Shown here: piece after piece, positions 1 through 9,685 of the stretch | Layout of the letters: each line of letters opens with the position of its first letter | Position numbering within the stretch: position 1 is the first letter of the stretch | IMG/VR virus record: IMGVR_UViG_2737471850_000009 | Coordinates: 1-9,685 of that record | Reading direction: 5' to 3' (one strand) | DNA length: 9,685 nt | DNA from: a virus | Lineage: Duplodnaviria > Heunggongvirae > Uroviricota > Caudoviricetes | Translations under genes and position numbers: made by a program | Notes under the pieces: generated by a model | What the model saw: the letters and a program-made list of their open reading frames with translations, nothing else | What the model was told of the DNA's origin: nothing | Database searches by the model: none

Positions 1-510
1 CGCGTCACGAATGGTTTTAATGCCGTAAATGCTCTTCATGGCGGTTACGCCCGCCAGTTCGTTGGCCGGGAATGTGCAGACACTGATTTCCCGCAGATAA
101 GTAATGTTTTTGAAAATGAGGCCGGACGTGCCGACGGTGTAATCGTCAGGGCCGACTGAAAAACCCACCGACATGCCTTCAACCGTGCCATGCTGCATGG
201 CGGCCTTCAGATCCTCGGCCAGGCTCAATCTGGGTGTGAGCTGCCCTCGGACATAAAGCCCCTTCTCGTCTTCGTGCATGGCATCCCATTTGCCAACCGG
301 GATGGCTCGCGTCTGGTGGTTGAAGAACATCGCCACCTTGCGGCTCTGGTTAGCCACCACACCAGCGAAAGCCCCGGGCAAAATAATGTCGCCGTCGGCG
401 TCGGTGTTATTGAAAACCGAGGCATACCCTTCAAACGTTCCCTTGCTGCCGTCGCCGGTGAACTTGATTTCGGTCTGGTCGAACGCCAGCGTCTTGTGAA
501 TATCAGGCAT
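1..510 (-). CDS. HK97-family prohead maturation protease (peptidase S78), N-terminal part; gene continues past the window start
   Basis: My own minus-strand translation from ATG at 510-508 stays open to position 1 (MPDIHKTLAFDQTEIKFTGDGSKGTFEGYASVFNNTDADGDIILPGAFAG...ISVCTFPANELAGVTAMKS...). The GDIILPGAF and FPAN motifs are typical of HK97-type prohead proteases. It sits directly downstream of portal. It is absent from the ORF track because there is no in-window stop. The start could instead be the in-frame ATG at 522. Confidence 0.8.
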   Translation of the reverse strand, partial: MPDIHKTLAFDQTEIKFTGDGSKGTFEGYASVFNNTDADGDIILPGAFAGVVANQSRKVAMFFNHQTRAIPVGKWDAMHEDEKGLYVRGQLTPRLSLAEDLKAAMQHGTVEGMSVGFSVGPDDYTVGTSGLIFKNITYLREISVCTFPANELAGVTAMKSIYGIKTIRDA

Positions 511-527
511 CGTGGCCCCCATAAAAA

Positions 528-1799
528 TTAAGCCCCGTCATTGCGGGGCTCTTTGTTTGTTCCGAGGTCGGTAATGGGAACGTTCTGCGACTGGCGCGTC
601 GCCACATCACCGCCAGGCAAAGGCGGAAGATTATCCAGTCGCCGCACTTCGTTAACGGTACGGATCCCTGTATTAACCATGGTTTGCATGAAGGTAGCGC
701 GGCTCGCTGAGTCACCACGAAGCAGGCCATCAAGGTTATGCTCGGCGTGCAGCCTTCCCTGATCGGACTCTTTTACCAGCCAGCGCTCTATGCTGTACTC
801 CCAGCGATCGAGATAGGGCTTCAGGGTGTACTGGAGAAAGCCGAGGTTCTGCTGTTCAATGCCGCTGCCCCATGAAGTTGTTTTTTCAACATCACCAACC
901 AGGTGCGGCGGAACACCGTAAAAGCGCGCCAGCTCTGCCACCTGAAACTTACGGGCCTCAAGCATCTGTGCGTCCTGCGGCGAGATGCCTATCGGCTGCG
1001 TGGTGAACCCGCTCTCAATGATCCAGAGGCGTTTTCTCACCGGGCCGCCGGCAATCTCCTTAAAGTTTTCCTCCAGCTGTCCGCGCTGCTCTTTGGTCAG
1101 CACCTTGCCGTCAGTCATCAGGATTTGCGGTGATTTGGCGCCGTTGGCGAAAAACTCCCGCTGGTTATCTTCCATAGCAATAGCCACGCCTGCAGATTTG
1201 GCGCTGAACGCCAGCGGCGATAACCCGACCAGCCCGTTAAAGCCGAAGCCTTTCAGGTGGAATATTTCTTTCGGCTTAAAGTCCACATACTCGCTGTCGC
1301 GCCGGTACCGGTAGATGACATTTTTTCCATCGAGCCGGACATCCATATTCGCGCTCATCAGCGGAAGCAGGCTGATGACATCGCCGACGCTGTTTCGCTC
1401 CACATGCGCGTAGGCATTGCCGTAGGCGCAAAGCTGCATTGTCATTGCCTCGCGAAACTCCAGCGCGGTCATGAAGTTGTTGGGCCGGAAGCGAAGAAGC
1501 TTCGCCAGCGGGTTCTGGTTGTCGACTTTCTTTCGCTGATCATCGATGGTTTCAAAAACATCCAGCGGTAACGAGGCTGTTACGGTGGAGATGAGCCGGA
1601 TGCAGGCCCATACGGTGCTGATCGACATGTTGCGCTCATCGCTCACCACCGATTCCCCGACGGTGCCGTGAGCTGATGTGCCCGCCATCTGCGAGCCATT
1701 ATCCGGTGAAACCAGGCGGCCACCGGTCAGAATAGAGGCCATGCGCGCCCAGAATGGCGATCGCGTTCGCAGGTCAATGCTGTAATCGGTATCTGCCAT
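528..1799 (-). CDS. Phage portal protein, HK97 family
   Basis: 423-aa ORF with the length and sequence character of HK97-family portals. Its ATG lies 2 nt after the terL stop (tight coupling). Canonical position between terL and prohead protease. Confidence 0.9.
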   Translation of the reverse strand: MADTDYSIDLRTRSPFWARMASILTGGRLVSPDNGSQMAGTSAHGTVGESVVSDERNMSISTVWACIRLISTVTASLPLDVFETIDDQRKKVDNQNPLAKLLRFRPNNFMTALEFREAMTMQLCAYGNAYAHVERNSVGDVISLLPLMSANMDVRLDGKNVIYRYRRDSEYVDFKPKEIFHLKGFGFNGLVGLSPLAFSAKSAGVAIAMEDNQREFFANGAKSPQILMTDGKVLTKEQRGQLEENFKEIAGGPVRKRLWIIESGFTTQPIGISPQDAQMLEARKFQVAELARFYGVPPHLVGDVEKTTSWGSGIEQQNLGFLQYTLKPYLDRWEYSIERWLVKESDQGRLHAEHNLDGLLRGDSASRATFMQTMVNTGIRTVNEVRRLDNLPPLPGGDVATRQSQNVPITDLGTNKEPRNDGA

Positions 1800-1801
1800 T
1801 T

Positions 1802-3334
1802 TTAAACGCTCAAAAAGTTGTAAATGAAATCGTTAACGTCGCCCGGATCCTCCACCTCATCACTGGTCTGTGCGCCGATAGACATCGCCAGCGCCACCAT
1901 GCCGTCGATACGGCCGCTCGATTTGCCTTTCACAAACTTGCGGTTACCGGCGGGGTCGGTGATTACCGTGGCGTTTTTGGCGCACATCTCGAGGATCGGA
2001 TGGTTGCCGTGCTTCAGTTGCGCGCCGAGCAGTTTAGCTTCCAGCTCCCTGAGCGCAGGCGACATGGAGACAAAACCCTGGCCGAATTCCACGAACCGCT
2101 CGAGCTCCGCCTCAGTGAAACCGGCGTCGATGAGATGCGGGCGAAGGAAGCGCATGTTGTAGCGGTCGAACGCCAGCGCCCGGACGTTACAGATATCAAA
2201 AACGCGCCGCAGCTCCCGTGCAATAAAGGCGTACTCAATGGCTTTGCCCGGCGTCGTGTTCAGCCAGCCCTGCTTCGCCCATATGTCATAAGGCACGCGA
2301 TCGTTACGCGCCTTGTCCGCCAGCCCCTCTTCAGGTAGCCAGAACTTACAGTGCACATCGCCCTGCGTTGTGTTGAGCACCAGCGCGGTCAGGTCCGACA
2401 CGCTGGAAAGGTCCAGCCCGCCCCAGACGGTAGCGCCCGCCAGTTCGCCAGGCTCTTCTTTGTTCATGTGCCAGACGGTCTGGCTGACGAACGGGCTTTT
2501 CGCCTCAACCCTGCGGTTCAGTACAAGGTTCTCAAATTCAGCCTGGCGCGACGGGAGGCGCTTGGCGCTGGCGGCCATATCCAGCACTTCTTTCTGGTTC
2601 ATGAACACATCGAAGGCCGGGTTAGCCAGCCTGATGGCTTCGACAGAGAAAGGATCGATATCTTCCGGCGCGGTCTGCAGCCGTACCACCGTTCGCGGAT
2701 CGGCACCGGTCAGGCCATCATCAATCAGCAGGCTGAGCAGGTCGCTCGCATCGGGTGCCTGGGTGCTGATGATTACCGAGATAGGGTTGTCCTGAGCAGC
2801 GGTCGCGGTTTCCAGAGCTTCATAAAGCGGGTCACGCGGCCCGCGCACCTGGCCCAGCTCATCATGGGCGACAAATCGCGGCGAGAAACCGTAGGCCGTT
2901 GTGGCCTCAGCGCTCAACGCGCGATAGTAAGAGCCCAGTTCAGGGCAGTGAATCTCTTTGGCTGAATCTTTTATGGCAACGTATTGCATCAGTGTCGGAT
3001 TCATACGACACATTTTCGAAGCAAGGTTAAACAGAATTGCTGCCTGATCGCGTGATCGGGCTGCGGAATACAATTGTGAGTTAGGCGCTGATTCGGGACC
3101 AACCAGATAAAGCAGCATGATTATCGCTGTCTCTACCGTCTTGGCGTTCTTTCGCCCCCTGCTGATAATCGCGCGGCGAGTACCATGCTCATTATCAAAT
3201 ATTGCTCTGAAGTCATCCTTCATGAAAGGAGCCATCTTCAGAGGCTGGCCTACGTACTTCCCTTCAGGGATCAGGATGTGTTTCTCACACCAGGCTATAT
3301 TGCGCTCAGCCCTTGTAAGCTTTTTTTTCGCCAT
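1802..3334 (-). CDS. terL: Terminase large subunit (ATPase/nuclease)
   Basis: 510-aa ORF with an N-terminal P-loop-like segment (ISRGRKNAKT) and a DE acidic box (FVAHDELG), followed by a nuclease-like C-terminal half. Lies directly downstream of the small subunit gene and upstream of portal. Confidence 0.9.
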   Translation of the reverse strand: MAKKKLTRAERNIAWCEKHILIPEGKYVGQPLKMAPFMKDDFRAIFDNEHGTRRAIISRGRKNAKTVETAIIMLLYLVGPESAPNSQLYSAARSRDQAAILFNLASKMCRMNPTLMQYVAIKDSAKEIHCPELGSYYRALSAEATTAYGFSPRFVAHDELGQVRGPRDPLYEALETATAAQDNPISVIISTQAPDASDLLSLLIDDGLTGADPRTVVRLQTAPEDIDPFSVEAIRLANPAFDVFMNQKEVLDMAASAKRLPSRQAEFENLVLNRRVEAKSPFVSQTVWHMNKEEPGELAGATVWGGLDLSSVSDLTALVLNTTQGDVHCKFWLPEEGLADKARNDRVPYDIWAKQGWLNTTPGKAIEYAFIARELRRVFDICNVRALAFDRYNMRFLRPHLIDAGFTEAELERFVEFGQGFVSMSPALRELEAKLLGAQLKHGNHPILEMCAKNATVITDPAGNRKFVKGKSSGRIDGMVALAMSIGAQTSDEVEDPGDVNDFIYNFLSV

Positions 3335-3347
3335 TCGCTAATCAGCC

Positions 3348-3782
3348 TTAATCAATTTCCCAGGGCTTTTTCTCCCGAGCCAGATTGCTGTTGGCCCGGC
3401 CAACAGTTTTGGGATCGGCAGTAGCCTGGCGGGTAATCCGCAGGCGGGTCGCAAGAGAAGATGCCGATCGCACCTCGCGCTCGCGCATCGTGAGCAGCCT
3501 GTCGTAGCGCTTCAGCCCGTCTTCGCGGGACAACCACTCGAGCTCAAACTCTTCAATCTGGGTGGTGAGCAGCCGGGCCTGCACCACATGCCGACAGTAC
3601 ATCTCCAGCATGTCCCGGTGTGTTTCGGTGAATGAGCTGGCCGGGTTGTCATTAACCAGCCGGACCCAGACGTTAATCTCCGGATCGCTCAGGTGAATGG
3701 ACGGCTGCAACCTGCTTTCAGCCAGTGCCGGCAGCGAGACAGCAGACGTCGCAGCCAGAGACTTTCTGCCTCGCTGTGCCAT
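3348..3782 (-). CDS. terS: Terminase small subunit (P27-like)
   Basis: Start chosen at the internal ATG (MAQRGRKSL...) at 3782, preceded by AAGGA about 9 nt upstream. The 44 codons upstream in the track ORF run through a poly-C/AT-rich noncoding-looking tract. About 144 aa, basic N-terminus, immediately upstream of terL. Confidence 0.65.
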   Translation of the reverse strand: MAQRGRKSLAATSAVSLPALAESRLQPSIHLSDPEINVWVRLVNDNPASSFTETHRDMLEMYCRHVVQARLLTTQIEEFELEWLSREDGLKRYDRLLTMREREVRSASSLATRLRITRQATADPKTVGRANSNLAREKKPWEID

Positions 3783-3914
3783 CGCGTTTTTCCTTTTTTT
3801 CTGGACGTTTTTAAAAATAAAACTGGGAGCGCGGTCTTTAAGAATTTGGTACCAGAGTTTTACCCCTCCCCCTCCCTTACCAACATAAATATGAGAATTG
3901 ATATCATTTCTCAA

Positions 3915-4124
3915 TTACGTGTAAGCTTGAGTGAGGTATGCCAGAGGGCACCAGACGATCACCAACGCCGATTGGCAATGTGAGGGTAATGGTAGGGTAA
4001 TGGTAGGCAGCATCTCACCGACCTCATGATTGAAGGAGACTGCAGTGGCATGTTTAAAGCTCACGCTATCAATGCTCAACTCAATCAACTTCCCATCACG
4101 GTATTCAATCTTCATGTCTTGCAT
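3915..4124 (-). CDS. Hypothetical small protein (doubtful); may be non-coding cos region
   Basis: ATG at 4124 is preceded by AGGAG with a 6-nt spacer, directly after the HNH stop. The reading frame runs through the 11-bp tandem repeat (translated as PTITLPLP) and ends only at 3915, so the C-terminal half looks non-coding. Confidence 0.25.
   Translation of the reverse strand: MQDMKIEYRDGKLIELSIDSVSFKHATAVSFNHEVGEMLPTITLPLPSHCQSALVIVWCPLAYLTQAYT
3984..4005. repeat. Tandem direct repeat, 2 copies of the 11-bp unit GGGTAATGGTA (followed by GG)
   Basis: Read directly: GGGTAATGGTAGGGTAATGGTAGG. Candidate terminase small-subunit binding repeats (cosB-like), by position. Confidence 0.85.
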
Positions 4125-4136
4125 CAACTACTCCTG

Positions 4137-4427
4137 TTACCAGATAACACGGCCTTCATTATCGAACTCGGTGACCGTTCCGCCCTTCTCCATCCTCTGC
4201 TTTACCGAGTCGTGGCAACGTTTGCAAAGTGACTGAAGATTATCCGGATCATGAAAGAGCCTATCGTCTCCTTTGTGCGGGATGACATGGTCAACGATCG
4301 TTGCCGCTATCACCTGATTGCGCCGGAGGTGGAACTCACAAAGAGGTTGCTTCTGAAGCTGGTGATAGCGGAGTCGGTACCAACGCTTGGAATTGTAGAG
4401 GCTATGCCAAGGTGAATTGGATGCCAT
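4137..4427 (-). CDS. HNH endonuclease (terminase-associated, phage type)
   Basis: 96-aa ORF with a Cys pair and His/Asn signature (CEFH...N...H...CKRCH) typical of small phage HNH nucleases. GGGAG SD about 8 nt upstream of the ATG. Positioned just upstream of cos and terS as in HK97-like phages. Confidence 0.85.
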   Translation of the reverse strand: MASNSPWHSLYNSKRWYRLRYHQLQKQPLCEFHLRRNQVIAATIVDHVIPHKGDDRLFHDPDNLQSLCKRCHDSVKQRMEKGGTVTEFDNEGRVIW

Positions 4428-4504
4428 GGTTAATCTCCCTCTGCATTGCTAAATCGCCAATTCCGGCTAACGGCGTGCCCAGGCTCACAGCTGAAAGACT
4501 TTCT

Positions 4505-4534
4505 TTGAAGTGCGCGTGAGATGCGCTTTATACT
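4505..4534 (+). promoter_or_regulatory. Putative sigma70-type promoter for the YkgJ-like gene
   Basis: TTGAAG (4505-4510), 18-nt spacer, TATACT (4529-4534), about 95 nt upstream of the ATG at 4630. Sequence-only prediction. Confidence 0.3.
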
Positions 4535-4629
4535 CCAGCAATAGCCGCCAGCAATGCCAGTAAGTATCAAATTACAAAATTATCTTTGTTCATTTTGTTG
4601 AGTGACACCTCAAAAAGGAGGCATGGGAA

Positions 4630-5163
4630 ATGAGTCTGGAAAAATTGCTAATCAAAGATAGAAAATGTGGTTCATGTTCTGTTTGTTGTAAATCCCTGAG
4701 AATCGAAGAGCCAGAGCTTAAAAAATTTGCTGGAGTGCCATGTCAGCATCTTAAAGCACAGGGCGGATGTTCGATTTATAATGATCGCCCATCTCTATGT
4801 CGTACGTGGTACTGCGGATGGAGAGTTTTAGGTATCGGTCCGGAAATGAGGCCTGATCGTTGTGGTGTTCTTATTCGCTTCGATGGCAAAGCTCTGTGCT
4901 TTCAGCCAGTAAATGATGGTCAAGTTACTACATTGCTTGATCCAGAGCCTTTACGTGTTTTAAGCAGTTCAATTGCAAATGGGATGACCGTTCAGATTTC
5001 GATTCCGACAAAAGAAGGCTTTTGCTCTTCAAATGTCGACGTTACAGCAGCTATGACCGAGGTAGTTAAAACCAGAGAGTTTGATAAGATTCGTGCAACT
5101 ATGATTGGATTAATTCAATTCGCTGCGAATTCGAAGACAGACCCGATTGCTCCTTTAAATTAG
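4630..5163 (+). CDS. YkgJ-family cysteine-cluster protein (CxxCxxCC putative Zn/Fe-chelating domain, UPF0153-like)
   Basis: 177-aa ORF with AAGGAGG SD 9 nt upstream. Carries CGSCSVCC (CxxCxxCC) and later GGCSIYNDRPSLCRTWYC, matching the two hallmark segments of the YkgJ/CxxCxxCC family. Opposite strand to all flanking phage genes and visibly AT-richer (sampled stretches roughly 32-43% GC versus the clearly GC-richer late genes). Confidence 0.75.
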   Translation: MSLEKLLIKDRKCGSCSVCCKSLRIEEPELKKFAGVPCQHLKAQGGCSIYNDRPSLCRTWYCGWRVLGIGPEMRPDRCGVLIRFDGKALCFQPVNDGQVTTLLDPEPLRVLSSSIANGMTVQISIPTKEGFCSSNVDVTAAMTEVVKTREFDKIRATMIGLIQFAANSKTDPIAPLN

Positions 5164-5171
5164 CATCCGAT

Positions 5172-5189
5172 GCCGGGGTTGCACCCGGC
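5172..5189 (+). terminator. Stem-loop immediately after the stop codon of the YkgJ-like gene (weak or atypical terminator)
   Basis: GCCGGG-GTTGCA-CCCGGC, a 6-bp GC stem with a 6-nt loop, 8 nt after TAG. No U tract on either strand, so not a canonical intrinsic terminator. Confidence 0.25.
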
Positions 5190-5557
5190 TTAACAAACGA
5201 GAAACATACGAATCGGTTGCAAATCTCAAGCAGCTCTTGTCTTTTAACATTAGACGATCGTTTCATTAGCATTTCATCTGATGTACTGAATAAGTTTTTC
5301 ATAAAACATTCCCATTCTAATTATCTAGGCTGCATTTAAATGCCTCACCACTTCCCGGAGTGGCCACGCTCATGCCCTTGAGTTGCTGTCGCTTCATCGC
5401 CGCTTATAACCGGTGCGCGTCTGGCGTTCGCGCTGCTCTACCGGAGCTTATTTTGATATAAGAACCTTGACCCGTCGCTATACAGGCTCGCTCAATGGCG
5501 ACTCAGGGCAGCATCATTACTGCTGCATTGCCTTTCGGCTGCGGTCTAACCGCTTTG

Positions 5558-5788
5558 CTACTTGATTTCGAGTTTCTCCTTCTGACAATTTGCCTGCCAC
5601 GCTTTGTTATGCGTCAGGATGTCGCGCTTGGTCTGCTTATCCAACACATCCCAGTCATTATCTGTTGCATAGATAGGATGAACCCAGTCGCACGCCGTAT
5701 CGACTACCTCAACCCTTACGGGTCCAGTTTGTGCGCAGCTCGCGATCAACGTCGTCGCCAGGCATATGATTAACTTTCTGCTGTACAT
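5558..5788 (-). CDS. o-spanin (Rz1-like outer-membrane lipoprotein)
   Basis: Internal ATG at 5788 (MYSRKLIICLATTLIASCAQTGP...) preceded by GAGAGG with a 6-nt spacer. Signal peptide with lipobox-like IASC. The gene begins inside the i-spanin gene in another frame and extends past it (overlapped architecture as in P2 lysB/lysC). The longer track ORF from 5959 is treated as an artefactual extension. Confidence 0.55.
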   Translation of the reverse strand: MYSRKLIICLATTLIASCAQTGPVRVEVVDTACDWVHPIYATDNDWDVLDKQTKRDILTHNKAWQANCQKEKLEIK

Positions 5789-5981
5789 TACTGGCCTCTC
5801 TGGTGACTTCTGCCTGACGTTCTGCCACTGCAACCTTCGCCGCTGCGTTTTCTTCAGTGCGTTGTTGATCGGCTTTCGCTTCTGCTTTGCTGGTTCCGCG
5901 AATATGGCCAAGACCAAACCCACCAGCAGCGGCAACACAGATAGCACCAATGACACCAATGATGATTTCTACAATGCTCAT
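5709..5981 (-). CDS. i-spanin (Rz-like; N-terminal TM helix plus charged coiled-coil periplasmic region)
   Basis: The ATG overlaps the endolysin stop (ATGA). N-terminal hydrophobic helix IVEIIIGVIGAICVAAAGGFGLG followed by an Ala/Glu/Lys/Gln-rich segment. Sits immediately after the endolysin. At 90 aa it is short for an i-spanin. Confidence 0.5.
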   Translation of the reverse strand: MSIVEIIIGVIGAICVAAAGGFGLGHIRGTSKAEAKADQQRTEENAAAKVAVAERQAEVTREASNVQQKVNHMPGDDVDRELRTNWTRKG

Positions 5982-6589
5982 GCAATCACCGCTTTCGCTT
6001 TGCCGTAACGCACGCGTCTGTCGTTAATGCCGTTCTGACCGCCATTGATAATCTGAGTGATGCGCACCAGGTCATCGGTGTACTTCAGGCAACCTTTGGA
6101 GGCGTAGAACCATGCAGCAGAACGCGCAGCATTGATGTCTTTCTCCAGCAGTTCAGGGTTAGTAACCAGGTCAAGCTTCAGACCATTGCCGCAATCACGG
6201 TAATTGGTGAGACCGGTAATCTGAATTAATCCGCGCCCACGGTATTTCCAGCCATCACCAGCAGCTTTATTACCCAGGCGGTTGCTGTATACCAGGTTCG
6301 CGATAGCTTCCTGACTTGCTGGCTTACCGTTGGCACGTCCAAGCATTGAGGCCTGGTAGTTCGTTACCCGGCGTCCAAACGTCGTCAGTAATGCGGCAGG
6401 CGTGTAGTTGAAGTTCTCCACCAGCGCAGAGAATCCCGCCGATTCATGTCCTACCTGAGCAATGAACATCGCCTTATCTTTTGGTTCAGTGATGCCGAAC
6501 TCTTTCATTGCATCCGTAATCGGCTGAAACCAGCGCGCAGCTAACCCGGCGCTAATTACAGCCGCCTGTTGAAATTGTGATTGGTTCAT
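5978..6589 (-). CDS. Endolysin, glycoside hydrolase family 19 (chitinase-like phage lysozyme)
   Basis: 203-aa ORF with GH19-type endolysin sequence character (e.g. FIAQVGHESAGF, KYRGRGLIQITG, INGG segments). Its ATG overlaps the stop of the upstream membrane-protein gene. Confidence 0.85.
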   Translation of the reverse strand: MNQSQFQQAAVISAGLAARWFQPITDAMKEFGITEPKDKAMFIAQVGHESAGFSALVENFNYTPAALLTTFGRRVTNYQASMLGRANGKPASQEAIANLVYSNRLGNKAAGDGWKYRGRGLIQITGLTNYRDCGNGLKLDLVTNPELLEKDINAARSAAWFYASKGCLKYTDDLVRITQIINGGQNGINDRRVRYGKAKAVIA

Positions 6590-6864
6590 TAATGCCTCAG
6601 CGTATCAACGAGACGCGCTACGTTCCCACGAGCCCATAAGACGGCAGCGCAAATAAGAAGGTTTACGATGACCACCATCCAGTGTGACTCCTGGTAGAGG
6701 CCAAACAGATATCGGAATGGAACGCTGGCATAAACCAGCACAACGAAGTACGCCAGCAATGATATAGCGGGGCGATGTCTTGCCCCTTCACGCTGGTAGA
6801 ACATCAGGACGATGACTGCACAAATACCTGCATTCACCATCGCTGACGGATCACTTGTTACCAT
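6589..6864 (-). CDS. Small membrane protein, putative holin/antiholin
   Basis: Start placed at ATG 6864 with GGAGG upstream (the track uses GTG at 6882). Two to three hydrophobic helices. Its stop overlaps the endolysin start. Confidence 0.5.
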   Translation of the reverse strand: MVTSDPSAMVNAGICAVIVLMFYQREGARHRPAISLLAYFVVLVYASVPFRYLFGLYQESHWMVVIVNLLICAAVLWARGNVARLVDTLRH

Positions 6865-7246
6865 TGCTGGCCCCTCCTCCACGGAATCGCGAAAGAATAC
6901 TGAACAGGCTTCCCAAATCCTGACTGTTGAAAAATGTGAGCACTTTGATTGTCATCGCCGCCACTACAACAGCACCAAGCGCGTCTAATGGTCTGTCACT
7001 GTACCCGGTAGCTTGTGACAACTTTGAACCAACCAGGCCAGCAGCAAGAACGCCAACAATGAATGACGTCATGAAGTAAGCAATCAGTCGTACTCGTGTG
7101 ATATTTGCCGCTGTCGCTACATAAAATACTGCACCAGCGAATGCGCCAAATACCACGCCATAATCAATACCGGTTGCGAGACCAAATACACTGGCTCCCA
7201 TCAGGCCACCAGCCGCGACCGTAGTGCCAGAAACAGGATCGGACAT
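6851..7246 (-). CDS. Phage holin-family membrane protein
   Basis: 131-aa ORF with Gly/Ala-rich transmembrane helices and a hydrophilic C-terminus. GAGGGGG SD upstream. It is the first gene after the late terminator, as expected for a holin. Confidence 0.6.
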   Translation of the reverse strand: MSDPVSGTTVAAGGLMGASVFGLATGIDYGVVFGAFAGAVFYVATAANITRVRLIAYFMTSFIVGVLAAGLVGSKLSQATGYSDRPLDALGAVVVAAMTIKVLTFFNSQDLGSLFSILSRFRGGGASNGNK

Positions 7247-7330
7247 TAAGCCCCCTCTTATTGCTGTGAGTCCTCTCAGAACGAGGGGAAAATAAAAAGG
7301 GCCACCAATTGGCAGCCCTCAAAACGCAAA

Positions 7331-7360
7331 AACCCGCACGATGGCGGGTTTCTTTTTGTT
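7331..7360. terminator. Intrinsic terminator (tR'-like), apparently bidirectional
   Basis: AACCCGC-ACGATG-GCGGGTT, a 7-bp stem, followed by TCTTTTTGTT on the plus strand and preceded by AAAACGCAAAA (a T-run on the minus strand). Lies between Q and the holin gene. Confidence 0.6.
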
Positions 7361-7399
7361 CTGTTGCTCAGTTCGCTTTAACGTCCCGAGCCTACCACA

Positions 7400-7428
7400 A
7401 TTTAAGCACTTTCTTGCTCACTCTGCAA
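7400..7428 (-). promoter_or_regulatory. Candidate late promoter (PR'-like) overlapping the 3' end of Q
   Basis: Minus strand reads TTGCAG, 17 nt, TTAAAT. The -10 overlaps the Q stop codon. The terminator lies about 40-60 nt downstream, giving the short leader typical of Q-dependent late promoters. Confidence 0.35.
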
Positions 7429-7980
7429 CTTAAATCTGTCGCTATTTGTGCCGAATGCGTCACAAACTGGAGCGTACAGGATCGATTCTGCTAGACTTAG
7501 CCAAGTGTCAATGCGACGACGGCAGGTGATCAGCGGCCAATCAGGGTGTTTAGCCTGCAGTTCATTGGCCATCTGCAACTTACTCTTACGTAGGCGATGG
7601 CGGTCGACAATCACGCTATAGAGCGATCGGTAGTCATCATTCATCAGTACAGAAGCAATGACTCCGTCAACTAACAACCCTTCTTCGTCTGAACAGAACG
7701 CCAGACCGCTTTTATTTTTGCTGTTGAGGATTTCACGCAGGTACGCTTCAAGTTCAGGCTTGGTGATACCTGATTTCTTCATGCGGCGCAGAGCATCATT
7801 GATAGCTGTCTTGGTGATTTTCCCGGATGCCAGAAGCTGGTTAAACATGTTCCCACCACTACCGCCGCCGATATAAGACCAGCGGCCCCACATGCGCAAC
7901 TTACCCTGTATCCAGATGCTTTCCAGAGTACGAAGACGAACCATTTCACCAGATTTACCAACTTCAGAAGGATTAATCAT
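7402..7980 (-). CDS. Late-gene antiterminator Q (phage 82 / QuuD-like family)
   Basis: 192-aa ORF with GGAGAA SD upstream. Segments RMWGRW and CSDEEGLLVDG...YSVIVD resemble the ERWGAW and Cys/Asp-rich blocks I recall from 82-type Q proteins. Position immediately upstream of promoter, terminator and lysis genes supports the call. Confidence 0.65.
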   Translation of the reverse strand: MINPSEVGKSGEMVRLRTLESIWIQGKLRMWGRWSYIGGGSGGNMFNQLLASGKITKTAINDALRRMKKSGITKPELEAYLREILNSKNKSGLAFCSDEEGLLVDGVIASVLMNDDYRSLYSVIVDRHRLRKSKLQMANELQAKHPDWPLITCRRRIDTWLSLAESILYAPVCDAFGTNSDRFKLQSEQESA

Positions 7981-7994
7981 TTAGCGTTCTCCAC

Positions 7995-8318
7995 TTACGC
8001 CAGTACGCCGATTGCCAGCGCACGATCTATAACCCGAAACATCAGGACCATCTGGTCACCGTATTTCGCTTCAAATGCCACAGGATCAGCATGCAACTCG
8101 TCGTGATGCTCTCTGCACAGAGGAATCACAAACAGGTCGTGTGCCTTTGTACCCATTCCACCCTGCCCGTGGCCAATCAGGTGGTGGGGGTCGTCAGCTT
8201 GCTTGTTACAGCAGACGCACAGCTGGGCCTTAACCCATCTCGTGTATTTCTCATTCACCCAGCGACGACGCTTGGGTTTAAGCATGAAGGATTCCGGTGT
8301 CTCCGGGTCTACCTTCAT
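7995..8318 (-). CDS. HNH-motif protein of nin-region type (DUF968 / Ref-like putative nuclease)
   Basis: CVCCNKQADDPHHLIGHGQGG...CREHHDELH shows a Cys pair plus paired His motifs. Sits immediately upstream of Q, as nin-region genes do in lambdoid phages. Start uncertain: GTG at 8324 (track), ATG at 8318, or ATG at 8285. Confidence 0.5.
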   Translation of the reverse strand: MKVDPETPESFMLKPKRRRWVNEKYTRWVKAQLCVCCNKQADDPHHLIGHGQGGMGTKAHDLFVIPLCREHHDELHADPVAFEAKYGDQMVLMFRVIDRALAIGVLA

Positions 8319-8790
8319 CGCCACTATCTTTTTCGCTTTCTCCTGTACCTTCGCTTATGCGGTTCAGGTTGCTGTTTTAGAAATTCGCGAAGCCCGTTGT
8401 AAGTACAAAGAACTGCAATCACAAAACGCAGACATGGCAGTACAGCTCGCTAACGCCGAGAGCAAGTGCAGGGAGCTGGCGTTGGAGAATGCATACATCC
8501 GCAACCGGTACAAAGAACTGGACTTGTTAATCGGGAAAAACATCCTGGTCATGCAGGCAGCGATTATCGAATGGCAGGCAACTGGCGACGCTAAGAACGG
8601 GCTGTCATGGATTTATAACACCCTGTTTGGGCCTAGTGAATTGCCTGACGAATCTGAGAAAGATGCTCAGGCCTACTTTGACCGCAAATATGCACCGATT
8701 AACGAAGAGTTGATGGCACTTCACAAGTGGTTTTGGGAACAAAGTGAAGTTGAACGTGCCGCCGCTGGCATTGGCGTGAAGGGGGAGTGA
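8284..8790 (+). CDS. Hypothetical protein: N-terminal hydrophobic helix plus coiled-coil-like region
   Basis: First ATG of the track ORF (which begins at a TTG at 8203). MKDSGVSGSTFIATIFFAFSCTFAYAVQVAVL is followed by heptad-like KYKELQSQNADMAVQLANAESKCRELALENAYIRNRYKELD. The antisense frames look like junk. No family recognised. Its 5' end overlaps the 5' end of the divergent DUF968-like gene. Confidence 0.5.
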   Translation: MKDSGVSGSTFIATIFFAFSCTFAYAVQVAVLEIREARCKYKELQSQNADMAVQLANAESKCRELALENAYIRNRYKELDLLIGKNILVMQAAIIEWQATGDAKNGLSWIYNTLFGPSELPDESEKDAQAYFDRKYAPINEELMALHKWFWEQSEVERAAAGIGVKGE

Positions 8791-8791
8791 G

Positions 8792-8965
8792 ATGGCAGAA
8801 CGCTGGAAGATTCTCCTGCTAATAGCATTTATTTTTTTGACGGTCATTCCAGTAAGCATGGTGGCCGTGAAGGTTTATGTGTCTCCATGGCTGCTAATTG
8901 CAGGTCATGCAGGCGCAATGCTTTTCGGTTTTATATGCGCTGAGCTCGCGCGGAAGGATTACTAA
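8792..8965 (+). CDS. Small hydrophobic protein (57 aa, two predicted TM helices)
   Basis: Not in the ORF track (under 60 aa). ATG 8792 preceded by GGGGGAG. Translation MAERWKILLLIAFIFLTVIPVSMVAVKVYVSPWLLIAGHAGAMLFGFICAELARKDY. The stop lies 3 nt before the recombinase ATG, in the same frame. Confidence 0.4.
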   Translation: MAERWKILLLIAFIFLTVIPVSMVAVKVYVSPWLLIAGHAGAMLFGFICAELARKDY

Positions 8966-8968
8966 CCC

Positions 8969-9685
8969 ATGACAACTAACAACCACCCGGCGAACGGTCC
9001 TGTATCACTCGATCGGCTGCACCAGATACGCGAAATACTCAGCAAAGCAGCAGCACAAAGCGACGGCGGTAATCTCGGCTACGCAATGGCTGATGCTGTG
9101 AAGGTGATTGATGGGGCAATTGCTGAGTTTGGTAACCCATGCGTAGGCGTCGATAAATACCCTAAACCTCAGCGCGACCGATACATTACGGATGAAGAGT
9201 ATTTAGCAATTTATGACTGTGCTACTGATCCGGTAAAAGCCGCAATGGAAATTGCTTATCTCTGTGCAGCGAGGGTTTCCGATGTTCTGAAAATGGACTG
9301 GAATCAGATAATGGATAAAGGAATTTTCATTCAACAGGGTAAAACTGGAGTTAAGCAGATTAAAGCGTGGACAGACCGCTTGCACTCCGCTGTCAATCTT
9401 TGCAGGAAATCAGGGGAAGATGGCGCTGTCATCAAAACCATGTACGGAGAGCGATATTCCTATAAAGGTTTCAATGAAGCCTGGAGAAAGGCTAGGAATG
9501 CGGCTGCTGAAAAAATTGGCAGACCGTTAGACTGCACGTTCCATGATCTGAAGGCGAAAGGCATTTCTGACTATGAAGGAAGTGGCCGTGATAAGCAAAA
9601 ATTCAGTGGTCACAAAACTGAATCACAGGTGTTGGTATACGACAGGAAAGTAAAAATTAGCCCAACTTTAAACAGAAAAATGTGA
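8969..9685 (+). CDS. Tyrosine recombinase, lambda-Int-like catalytic domain only (arm-binding domain absent)
   Basis: 238 aa. Aligns by eye to the C-terminal ~250 residues of lambda Int (RYITDEEYLAIY...ARVSDVLKMDW...QQGKTGVK...TFHDLK...GHKTESQVLVYDR versus lambda LTADEYLKIY...QRVGDLCEMKW...SKTGVK...TFHELR...GHKSDTMASQYRD). The catalytic Arg-I, Lys, His and Tyr are present, but Arg-II is Lys. Ends with a stop at the window edge. Confidence 0.8.
   Translation: MTTNNHPANGPVSLDRLHQIREILSKAAAQSDGGNLGYAMADAVKVIDGAIAEFGNPCVGVDKYPKPQRDRYITDEEYLAIYDCATDPVKAAMEIAYLCAARVSDVLKMDWNQIMDKGIFIQQGKTGVKQIKAWTDRLHSAVNLCRKSGEDGAVIKTMYGERYSYKGFNEAWRKARNAAAEKIGRPLDCTFHDLKAKGISDYEGSGRDKQKFSGHKTESQVLVYDRKVKISPTLNRKM

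Follow-up and report, generated by a model that had tools for sequence, protein, structure and literature searches.

A predicted three-module cos site and a separate small gene between the HNH endonuclease and terS genes of an HK97-like prophage

The window analyzed here, a stretch of 9,685 nucleotides (nt) comprising positions 1 to 9,685 of IMG/VR virus record IMGVR_UViG_2737471850_000009 (Caudoviricetes), contains the DNA-packaging genes of a prophage related to HK97. Read on the minus strand, these are arranged in the order HNH endonuclease, small open reading frame (ORF), putative cohesive-end (cos) site, terS, terL and portal (Table 1). TerL is 44% identical to HK97 gp2 over its full length of 510 amino acids (aa) (E = 6e-151) and the HNH protein is 41% identical to HK97 gp74, bearing out the HK97-type succession of HNH gene, cos region, terS and terL recognized in an initial annotation of this DNA. 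A collinear prophage of Escherichia coli isolate F467 is 81% identical to the window from the HNH gene to terS. A search of NCBIfam with the small-ORF, TerS and HNH proteins gave no matches. The initial annotation had also described positions 3783 to 4136 as a single noncoding region. This did not hold: positions 3915-4124 constitute a 69-aa gene matching phrog_24041 at 2.3e-18, and the true intergenic stretch is 3783-3914 (132 base pairs [bp]) or, in the ancestral frame of the small gene, 3783-3903.

We consider it likely, at a probability of roughly 0.82, that the minus strand at about 3783-3890 carries the cos site of an HK97-like prophage, made up of three rigidly spaced modules, and that the small gene, together with the tandem repeat inside it, is a separate feature outside packaging. 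The comparison draws on about 96 related loci fetched from genomes and from IMG/VR, with a conservation profile across the cos region computed over 82 distinct relatives. In order along the minus strand, the modules would be a G box (GGGAGGGGGAGGGG followed by TAAAACTCTGG), a cut core 26 nt on (3836-3819), consisting of GAC, CGCGCTCCCA and GTTTT with a predicted nick on either side of CGCGCTCCCA, and a TerS site with the core AAACGTCCAGAAAAAAAGG.

Table 1. Features of the packaging region and their positions in the window.
Feature	Position	Strand	Basis and remarks
Portal protein gene	528-1799	minus	ORF list; portal annotation in the collinear E. coli F467 prophage; Phage_portal Pfam match on identical contigs
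terL, large terminase subunit (ATPase and nuclease), HK97 type	1802-3334	minus	Pfam TerL_ATPase and TerL_nuclease; identity to HK97 gp2
terS, small terminase subunit	3348-3782	minus	phrog_12559 (4.5e-76); weak Terminase_4 match; 42% identity to PAJU2 terS
Predicted TerS-binding site, AAAAACGTCCAGAAAAAAAGG, +12 to +32 from the predicted cut, with a 7-A tract	3792-3812	minus	Motif conservation and HK97 offset
Predicted cleavage site, GAC plus CGCGCTCCCA	3824-3836	minus	Alignment with HK97, D3 and PAJU2 record junctions
G box, GGGAGGGGGAGGGG then TAAAACTCTGG	3852-3876	minus	Conserved across 82 distinct relatives; ends 26 nt before GAC
Imperfect palindrome, TGAGAA-N10-TTCTCA, weak optional element	3892-3913		Overlaps ancestral stop codon of the small gene
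Small conserved gene, phrog_24041, frameshifted C-terminal tail	3915-4124	minus	69-aa ORF; AGGAG ribosome-binding site; annotated homologues
11-bp tandem duplication, GGGTAATGGTA twice (coding strand, CTACCATTACC twice)	3984-4005		TRF
HNH endonuclease gene, gp74-like packaging accessory nuclease	4137-4427	minus	Pfam HNH (7e-9); phrog_2323 (4.4e-32); identity to HK97 gp74 (E = 4e-20)

The placement of the cut follows from the ends of three phage genome records. In HK97, the -1/+1 junction of the record defines the cut, and the overhangs are 3' and 10 nt long (PMC11331095, PMC9410871). The D3 cos sequence has been reported as the 9-nt 5'-GCGCCCCCA-3' (bioRxiv 10.1101/2025.08.30.673261). We found that these are the last 9 nt of the D3 record and that the PAJU2 record begins where the HK97 and D3 overhangs begin. 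With a slash marking the record boundary, the HK97 junction reads GGGCAGGGGGGGGGATCAAATCTT...AAATGACCGCCGCCAAA/GTTTGAATTTAACGCTAACCCGATTTTTTT...ATG, terS starting at +50; the D3 junction reads GGGGTGGGGCGGGTCAAAACCTT...GGACACCGCGCCCCCA/GGTCTTTTTCC; the PAJU2 junction reads GGGGGGTAGGAAAAAATTTT...TCTAGAC/CGCGCCCGAAAGTCTTTC; and the equivalent region of the window, on the minus strand, is GGGAGGGGGAGGGGTAAAACTCTGG...TTAAAGACCGCGCTCCCAGTTTTATTTTTAAAAACGTCCAGAAAAAAAGGAAAAACGCGATG. The comparison with cos sites of related HK97-like phages, which had been suggested earlier, proved possible: the window core (GAC CGCGCTCCCA GTTTT) aligns base for base with HK97 (GAC CGCCGCCAAA/GTTTG), D3 (CGCGCCCCCA/GGTC) and PAJU2 (GAC/CGCGCCCGAA). 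Literature searches recovered the D3 overhang but no printed HK97 overhang sequence. On this alignment, the window is predicted to yield a 10-nt 3' overhang, CGCGCTCCCA (3833-3824, minus strand), through nicks between 3824 and 3823 on the top strand and opposite 3834 and 3833 on the bottom strand, with the left genome end starting at G3823; placed by comparison with relatives, the cut should be good to a base or two. A perfect AAAGAC-N10-GTCTTT inverted repeat surrounds the overhang in 16 of 84 relatives, as predicted from two-fold symmetric nicking 10 nt apart.

Contig ends of related phages point to the same base. A search of IMG/VR with the aligned TerL sequences of the window, HK97, D3 and PAJU2 returned 80 loci, and in 21 of them terS is preceded by a contig end no more than about 60 bp away. 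A TerS with an MxxRGRKS N terminus is encoded by 11 of the 21, all of which start exactly 12 nt before a (T/C)AA(A/C/T) motif. G3823 of the window likewise lies 12 nt before AAAAC, making the 11 contig starts the equivalent of position 3823, and two contigs whose TerS is of the HK97 type begin just like the HK97 record. Starts at +1 would fit blunt-ended libraries prepared from DNA with 3' overhangs. An exact-pattern scan of IMG/VR for GGGGTAAAACTCTGG, aimed at contigs ending at the right cos end, was uninformative: the loci returned were storage stretches with unreadable ends. The initial annotation had held that the cohesive-end site could not be located from sequence; that view can now be revised, as the HK97, D3 and PAJU2 genome ends together with these metagenomic contig ends give a base-level prediction.

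Downstream of the predicted cut, a nearly invariant element offers a candidate for TerS binding. In HK97, the minimal TerS site has been mapped at +15 to +29, A-tract included, and is read by Arg128 and an N-terminal arm (Arg7) where the DNA exits the tunnel of the ring (PMC11331095). In the window, AAACGTCCAGAAAAAAAGG occupies 3810-3792, or +14 to +32 from the cut. Of 86 distinct relatives, 83 have the corresponding motif, AAACGTCCAGA(6-7)G, and one has a close variant; among these relatives are betaproteobacterial prophages of Comamonas, Delftia, Acidovorax and Xenophilus, with a TerS identity of no more than 67-69% and divergent sequence in the rest of the intergenic region. Exactly 25 nt separates the ACCGCGC core from this motif in 84 of 84 relatives, a constancy not shared by the distance to the ATG, which differs by 1-2 nt. 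Given this fixed spacing and an offset equal to that of the mapped HK97 site, AAACGTCCAGAAAAAAAGG is the predicted TerS site, and we infer the same recognition mode as in HK97 TerS with a different specificity. An AlphaFold2 model of the window TerS had a predicted local distance difference test score (pLDDT) of 80.7, and in a Foldseek search against 350,000 Protein Data Bank (PDB) chains its best matches were the HK97 small terminase structures 8POP and 6Z6E.

These data also bear on the possibility that the prophage packages by a headful (pac) mechanism, the intergenic motifs being merely promoter, ribosome-binding or terminator signals for terS. The AGGA within the conserved A-rich block is indeed a plausible Shine-Dalgarno sequence, and the cos ends of this prophage rest on prediction. 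Yet the window lacks the marks of headful packaging. Its TerL groups with that of the cos phage HK97, the extent of identity being full length, and a gp74-like HNH gene is adjacent; its cut core can be aligned with known cos ends; and related contigs end at a fixed base. A promoter and terminator scan of 3300-4700 found nothing within 3783-3914, folding of this 132-nt region on both strands revealed no structured element (z = -0.66), and an Rfam scan of the whole window at E ≤ 1 gave nothing in 3783-4136, its one match being a sub-threshold isrJ hit at 497-552. Moreover, a ribosome-binding site alone is insufficient to account for CGTCCAG and the exact 25-nt spacing being kept into betaproteobacteria despite diverged flanks. 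We therefore regard headful packaging as very improbable.

The third element of the predicted cos site lies upstream of the cut. The initial annotation had pointed to a poly-C tract as a candidate packaging-region element, and this tract, CCCCTCCCCCTCCC at 3863-3876 (a G tract at 3876-3863 on the coding strand), emerged as a real cos element with a fixed position. Even with up to 2 mismatches allowed, the window contains no second match, and 0.05 matches would be expected by chance. GAC follows the G box after 26 nt in 73 of 84 relatives and after 27 nt in another 6 (79/84 together), and the genomes of HK97, D3 and PAJU2 have a G tract 39-42 nt ahead of their ends. We then scored the equivalent position in 27 diverse TerL lineages (43-66% identity) for at least 8 G in 11 nt. 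A coding-strand G tract was present in 18 of the 27, compared with an equivalent C run in 3, and at most of the 18 loci the tract ranked among the top 1-2% of G-dense windows of the 5.5-kb locus. In these diverse lineages the tract is usually followed by a GTC(A/G)AA-like box. We found no description of the G tract in the publications consulted.

Whether the tract has a function was considered from both sides. Even with the cos region correctly placed, it might be a passenger, either a slippage-prone homopolymer or a quirk of composition, and two observations agree with this: close relatives differ in the exact make-up and length of the tract, which ranges from G6AG3 to G3TG7AG4, and a strong tract is missing at the position in 9 of the 27 diverse lineages. 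Against it stand the fixed distance of 26-27 nt from GAC, the strand bias and G density just described, the conserved GTC(A/G)AA-like box directly after the tract, and its recurrence in HK97, D3 and PAJU2, whose other intergenic sequence shares little. In addition, terS directly adjoins another gene in several of the tract-less lineages, which may therefore have their cos site elsewhere. A mere passenger thus seems unlikely to us. The G box appears to be a position-fixed, conserved subsite of the predicted cos site, while its role is conjectural. A terminating motor would meet the G box about 40 bp before the cut, at which point about as much DNA would have moved beyond the nuclease and into the portal, which makes a cosQ-like role or docking of the HNH protein conceivable. 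More broadly, and only tentatively, we propose that the G box, lying 26-29 nt before the GACCG core, is a required and previously undescribed subsite of HNH-dependent HK97-type cos sites across Proteobacteria, read by the terminating motor, the portal or the HNH protein as a counterpart of lambda cosQ; this broader proposal is possible, though doubtful.

Taken as a whole, the three modules suggest a packaging cycle by analogy with HK97. A TerS ring would bind the A-tract site just downstream of the cut on the concatemer and position TerL, whereupon TerL and the HNH protein would make one nick in each strand, offset by 10 nt, to give 10-nt 3' overhangs. G3823 would be the first base of the left genome end, and packaging would proceed toward terS, terL and portal. 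At termination, the motor would arrive at the next cos site from the HNH side, encounter the G box first and stall at TerS bound beyond the cut. Joining of the ends would restore GACCGCGCTCCCAGTTTT.

Several points weigh against this interpretation. The cos ends of the window are predicted; the side of the HK97 junction that bears the overhang was inferred from D3 and PAJU2; and the overhang of the window may have 9 nt, the length reported for D3, instead of 10. The contig-end relatives show 50-65% TerL identity and fall outside the window's own family. The 3' end of the TerS motif overlaps the terS ribosome-binding site (AGGA), and part of its conservation may be translational. A relationship between the window TerS and HK97 gp1 was not found by BLASTP or by a PDB profile search, hhalign gave a nonsignificant E value of 0.05 over the N-terminal 54 aa only, and the fold match to 8POP and 6Z6E is weak (probability 0.77-0.80, template modeling score 0.44-0.61, E = 0.7-1.6). 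The function assigned to the G box is conjecture. Finally, homology to the complete F467 prophage stops at 8297, inside the DUF968 gene and beside an integrase-like ORF; the prophage therefore looks truncated, and the cos site may no longer be in use.

The small gene between the HNH gene and the predicted cos site is a small, optional and conserved gene. Its ATG sits 8 nt after the ribosome-binding site, and a 69-aa homologue is annotated at the same position in the E. coli F467 prophage and in Klebsiella phage KPP5665-2. Intact 69-aa homologues ending in ...RENLRIIEK were found at 60 or more of the roughly 96 related loci. For the window protein, the match to phrog_24041 covers residues 1-46 only, whereas the intact protein of one relative (L065), which differs from the window protein at a single position among the first 44 (V36 for G36), is matched over 69 of 69; the ancestral stop codon would fall at 3906-3904. 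The ORF is missing from 22 related loci (about a quarter), where the HNH gene ends 106-132 bp before terS, or 215-216 bp before it in two cases, and all 22 retain the HNH gene, the G box, the cut core and the TerS motif. An AlphaFold2 model of the small protein comprises a beta core (residues 1-48, pLDDT about 80) and a tail (residues 49-69) below 50. Foldseek searches of PDB and BFVD with this model gave no significant fold match, and a word-indexed homologue search with the small ORF returned 9 proteins only.

HK97 itself carries an intact 67-aa homologue of the small ORF (NC_002167.1, 39394-39597; phrog_10282, E = 1e-47), which is unannotated in the RefSeq record. It lies between gp74 (39054-39413), whose end it overlaps by 20 nt, and the right genome end (39732). 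In the HK022 record (NC_002166), too, nothing is annotated beneath the small-ORF match. Elsewhere, homologues carry the name "serine acetyltransferase," including WP_226425439.1 in RefSeq, gp57 of KPP5665-2 and an entry of ST16-OXA48phi5.3 in GenBank, and also the E. coli F467 copy; such homologues lie at 6559-6768 of locus L001 and 1501-1710 of locus L004. No Pfam or NCBIfam model backs this name, and the label therefore looks like a propagated misannotation. A homologue from Pseudescherichia vulneris (P0006, 88 aa) is a second, independent C-terminal frameshift variant, which reads on through the G tract (...GGDGRGGRVKL) and suggests that the protein tail of the small ORF is often disrupted.

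The frameshift of the window allele coincides with the 11-bp tandem repeat. The repeat is present where the initial annotation had placed it (TRF: 3983-4007, period 11, 2.3 copies, 100% match), but its proposed part as a TerS-binding or cleavage-adjacent element did not stand, the repeat being coding, single copy in relatives and gone together with the gene from 22 loci. It sits within the small gene, and the duplication shifts the frame after about residue 46, mainly swapping the low-confidence tail of the AlphaFold2 model. The 11-mer occurs once in E. coli F467 and in L065, and the other relatives have one copy or a diverged sequence; two copies with a scrambled tail were seen among the fetched loci only in the window and in L022, whose TerS is identical. 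The exact frameshifted protein is encoded on 15 contigs from several independent samples, among them NCBI assembly GCA_000819325.1, which is 100% identical to window positions 915-7124, and the duplication is therefore a real allele rather than an assembly error. A chance origin of a perfect direct repeat is unlikely, and its position between the HNH gene and terS would suit an element resembling the repeated R sites of lambda cosB. An element of the R type, however, would be expected to be noncoding, to be conserved among relatives that share TerS and to adjoin the cleavage site. The GGGTAATGGTA repeat has none of these properties: it lies inside a conserved protein-coding gene whose frame it shifts, the closest intact allele has a single copy, and it is 160-180 bp upstream of the predicted cut, on the side opposite that of the mapped HK97 TerS site. 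Its location inside an optional gene also means that it is not a required terminase signal. A role in TerS binding is thus scarcely credible, and we interpret the repeat, from its distribution among relatives, as a lineage-specific slippage duplication without part in packaging.

An imperfect palindrome lies between the small gene and the G box. In many relatives, and also in PAJU2 (L103), similar (A)ATGAGA-N-TCTCAT(T) palindromes precede the G tract by 10-25 nt, and HK97 (L002) and D3 have a half-site. The equivalent in E. coli F467, AATGATAATAATTATCATT, resembles a Fur box. As a required cos element the palindrome was downgraded, being absent from loci without the small gene.

Beyond the packaging block, an opposite-strand gene (4630-5163, plus strand) is inserted between the lysis cassette and the HNH gene. 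It encodes a 177-aa protein with a CxxCxxCC cysteine cluster, just below the cut-off for Pfam PF03692, and looks like a moron. Positions 4468-4526 form a 59-bp noncoding element that is 88-94% identical to unannotated sequence in HK639, mEp390, mEp213, mEp043, Fraca, FSL SP-016, AsXd-1 and about 16 E. coli chromosomes; its neighbors in both the window and mEp213 are the last late-operon gene on one side and an opposite-strand gene on the other. It is overlapped by a promoter-like TTGAAG-18-TATACT sequence (4505-4534, plus strand) and a small hairpin, and the element may be a shared promoter or regulatory region for a moron gene. At the opposite end of the window, the isrJ match noted above (plus strand; 26.9 bits against a gathering score of 37) owes its score to AAGCCCCG...CGGGGCT, a GC-rich hairpin where the portal gene ends, and is probably just a terminator-like hairpin. 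The DUF968 gene of the window encodes 109 aa, compared with 329 aa in F467, and is followed by unrelated plus-strand ORFs and by the integrase-like ORF (8969-9685), so that the prophage looks truncated across 7995-9685. A sister contig (L188) has a further deletion equivalent to window positions 6519-9130, and contig L191 has a split TerL.

The window itself thus represents a standard HK97-type packaging site in a probably defective prophage. What extends beyond it is a cos prediction at base level that applies to a large family of enterobacterial prophages (Klebsiella, Enterobacter, Citrobacter, Pseudescherichia and others) and a clear example of cos sites evolving in modules: TerL and the HNH protein are accompanied by their cut site and G box, TerS by its own site, and the 25-nt spacing stays fixed. 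Beside cos lies a conserved small gene that the HK97 reference record leaves unannotated and other records mislabel. If the G box is required, HK97, a structural model system, would have both a previously undescribed cos element and an unannotated conserved gene no more than 340 bp from its right end. Specialist follow-up is worthwhile only for the conserved G box and the unannotated HK97 gene.

Among known systems, one likeness is to the herpesvirus pac1 element, a T-rich element between G-rich tracts, in which a G-rich tract followed by an A/T-rich box also lies at a fixed distance of about 40 bp from cleavage; this is a resemblance of pattern only. With lambda cos (cosQ-cosN-cosB), the predicted site may share a three-part logic, namely, a cleavage site with a TerS site downstream of it, beside terS, and an upstream element that the terminating motor reaches first. 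In lambda, in contrast, the overhangs are 5' and 12 nt long, cosB works through three R repeats together with IHF, gpNu1 is a winged-helix protein and an HNH protein is missing; there is no sequence similarity, and a cosQ-like role of the G box is conjecture. The Pseudomonas phages D3 and PAJU2 (Detrevirus) were compared as well. Their overhangs (CGCGCCCCCA and CGCGCCCGAA) are nearly identical to that predicted for the window, both have a G tract 40 nt upstream and an upstream HNH gene, and the PAJU2 TerS is 42% identical to that of the window, with an MAxRGRKS N terminus in common. On the other hand, the reported D3 overhang is 9 nt, the TerS-site sequence differs in D3 and PAJU2, and between the HNH gene and cos PAJU2 has an unrelated small ORF and D3 none.

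HK97 matches the window in layout. Gene order is the same, TerL and the HNH protein are related at the identities given above, and a homologous small ORF lies between the HNH gene and cos. In both, a G tract about 40 nt before the cut precedes a GACCGC cut core and a T-rich left end, a TerS site with an A/T tract, mapped in HK97 and predicted in the window, follows at about +15 to +30, and terS starts 42-50 nt past the cut. The differences concern TerS, which has no detectable sequence relation to that of HK97, its site (AAACGTCCAGA7GG in the window versus CTAACCCGAT7 in HK97) and the overhang (CGCGCTCCCA, from predicted ends, versus CGCCGCCAAA). The TerL, HNH, cut-site and G-box modules are homologous to those of HK97, while TerS and its predicted site form a different specificity module at the same position.

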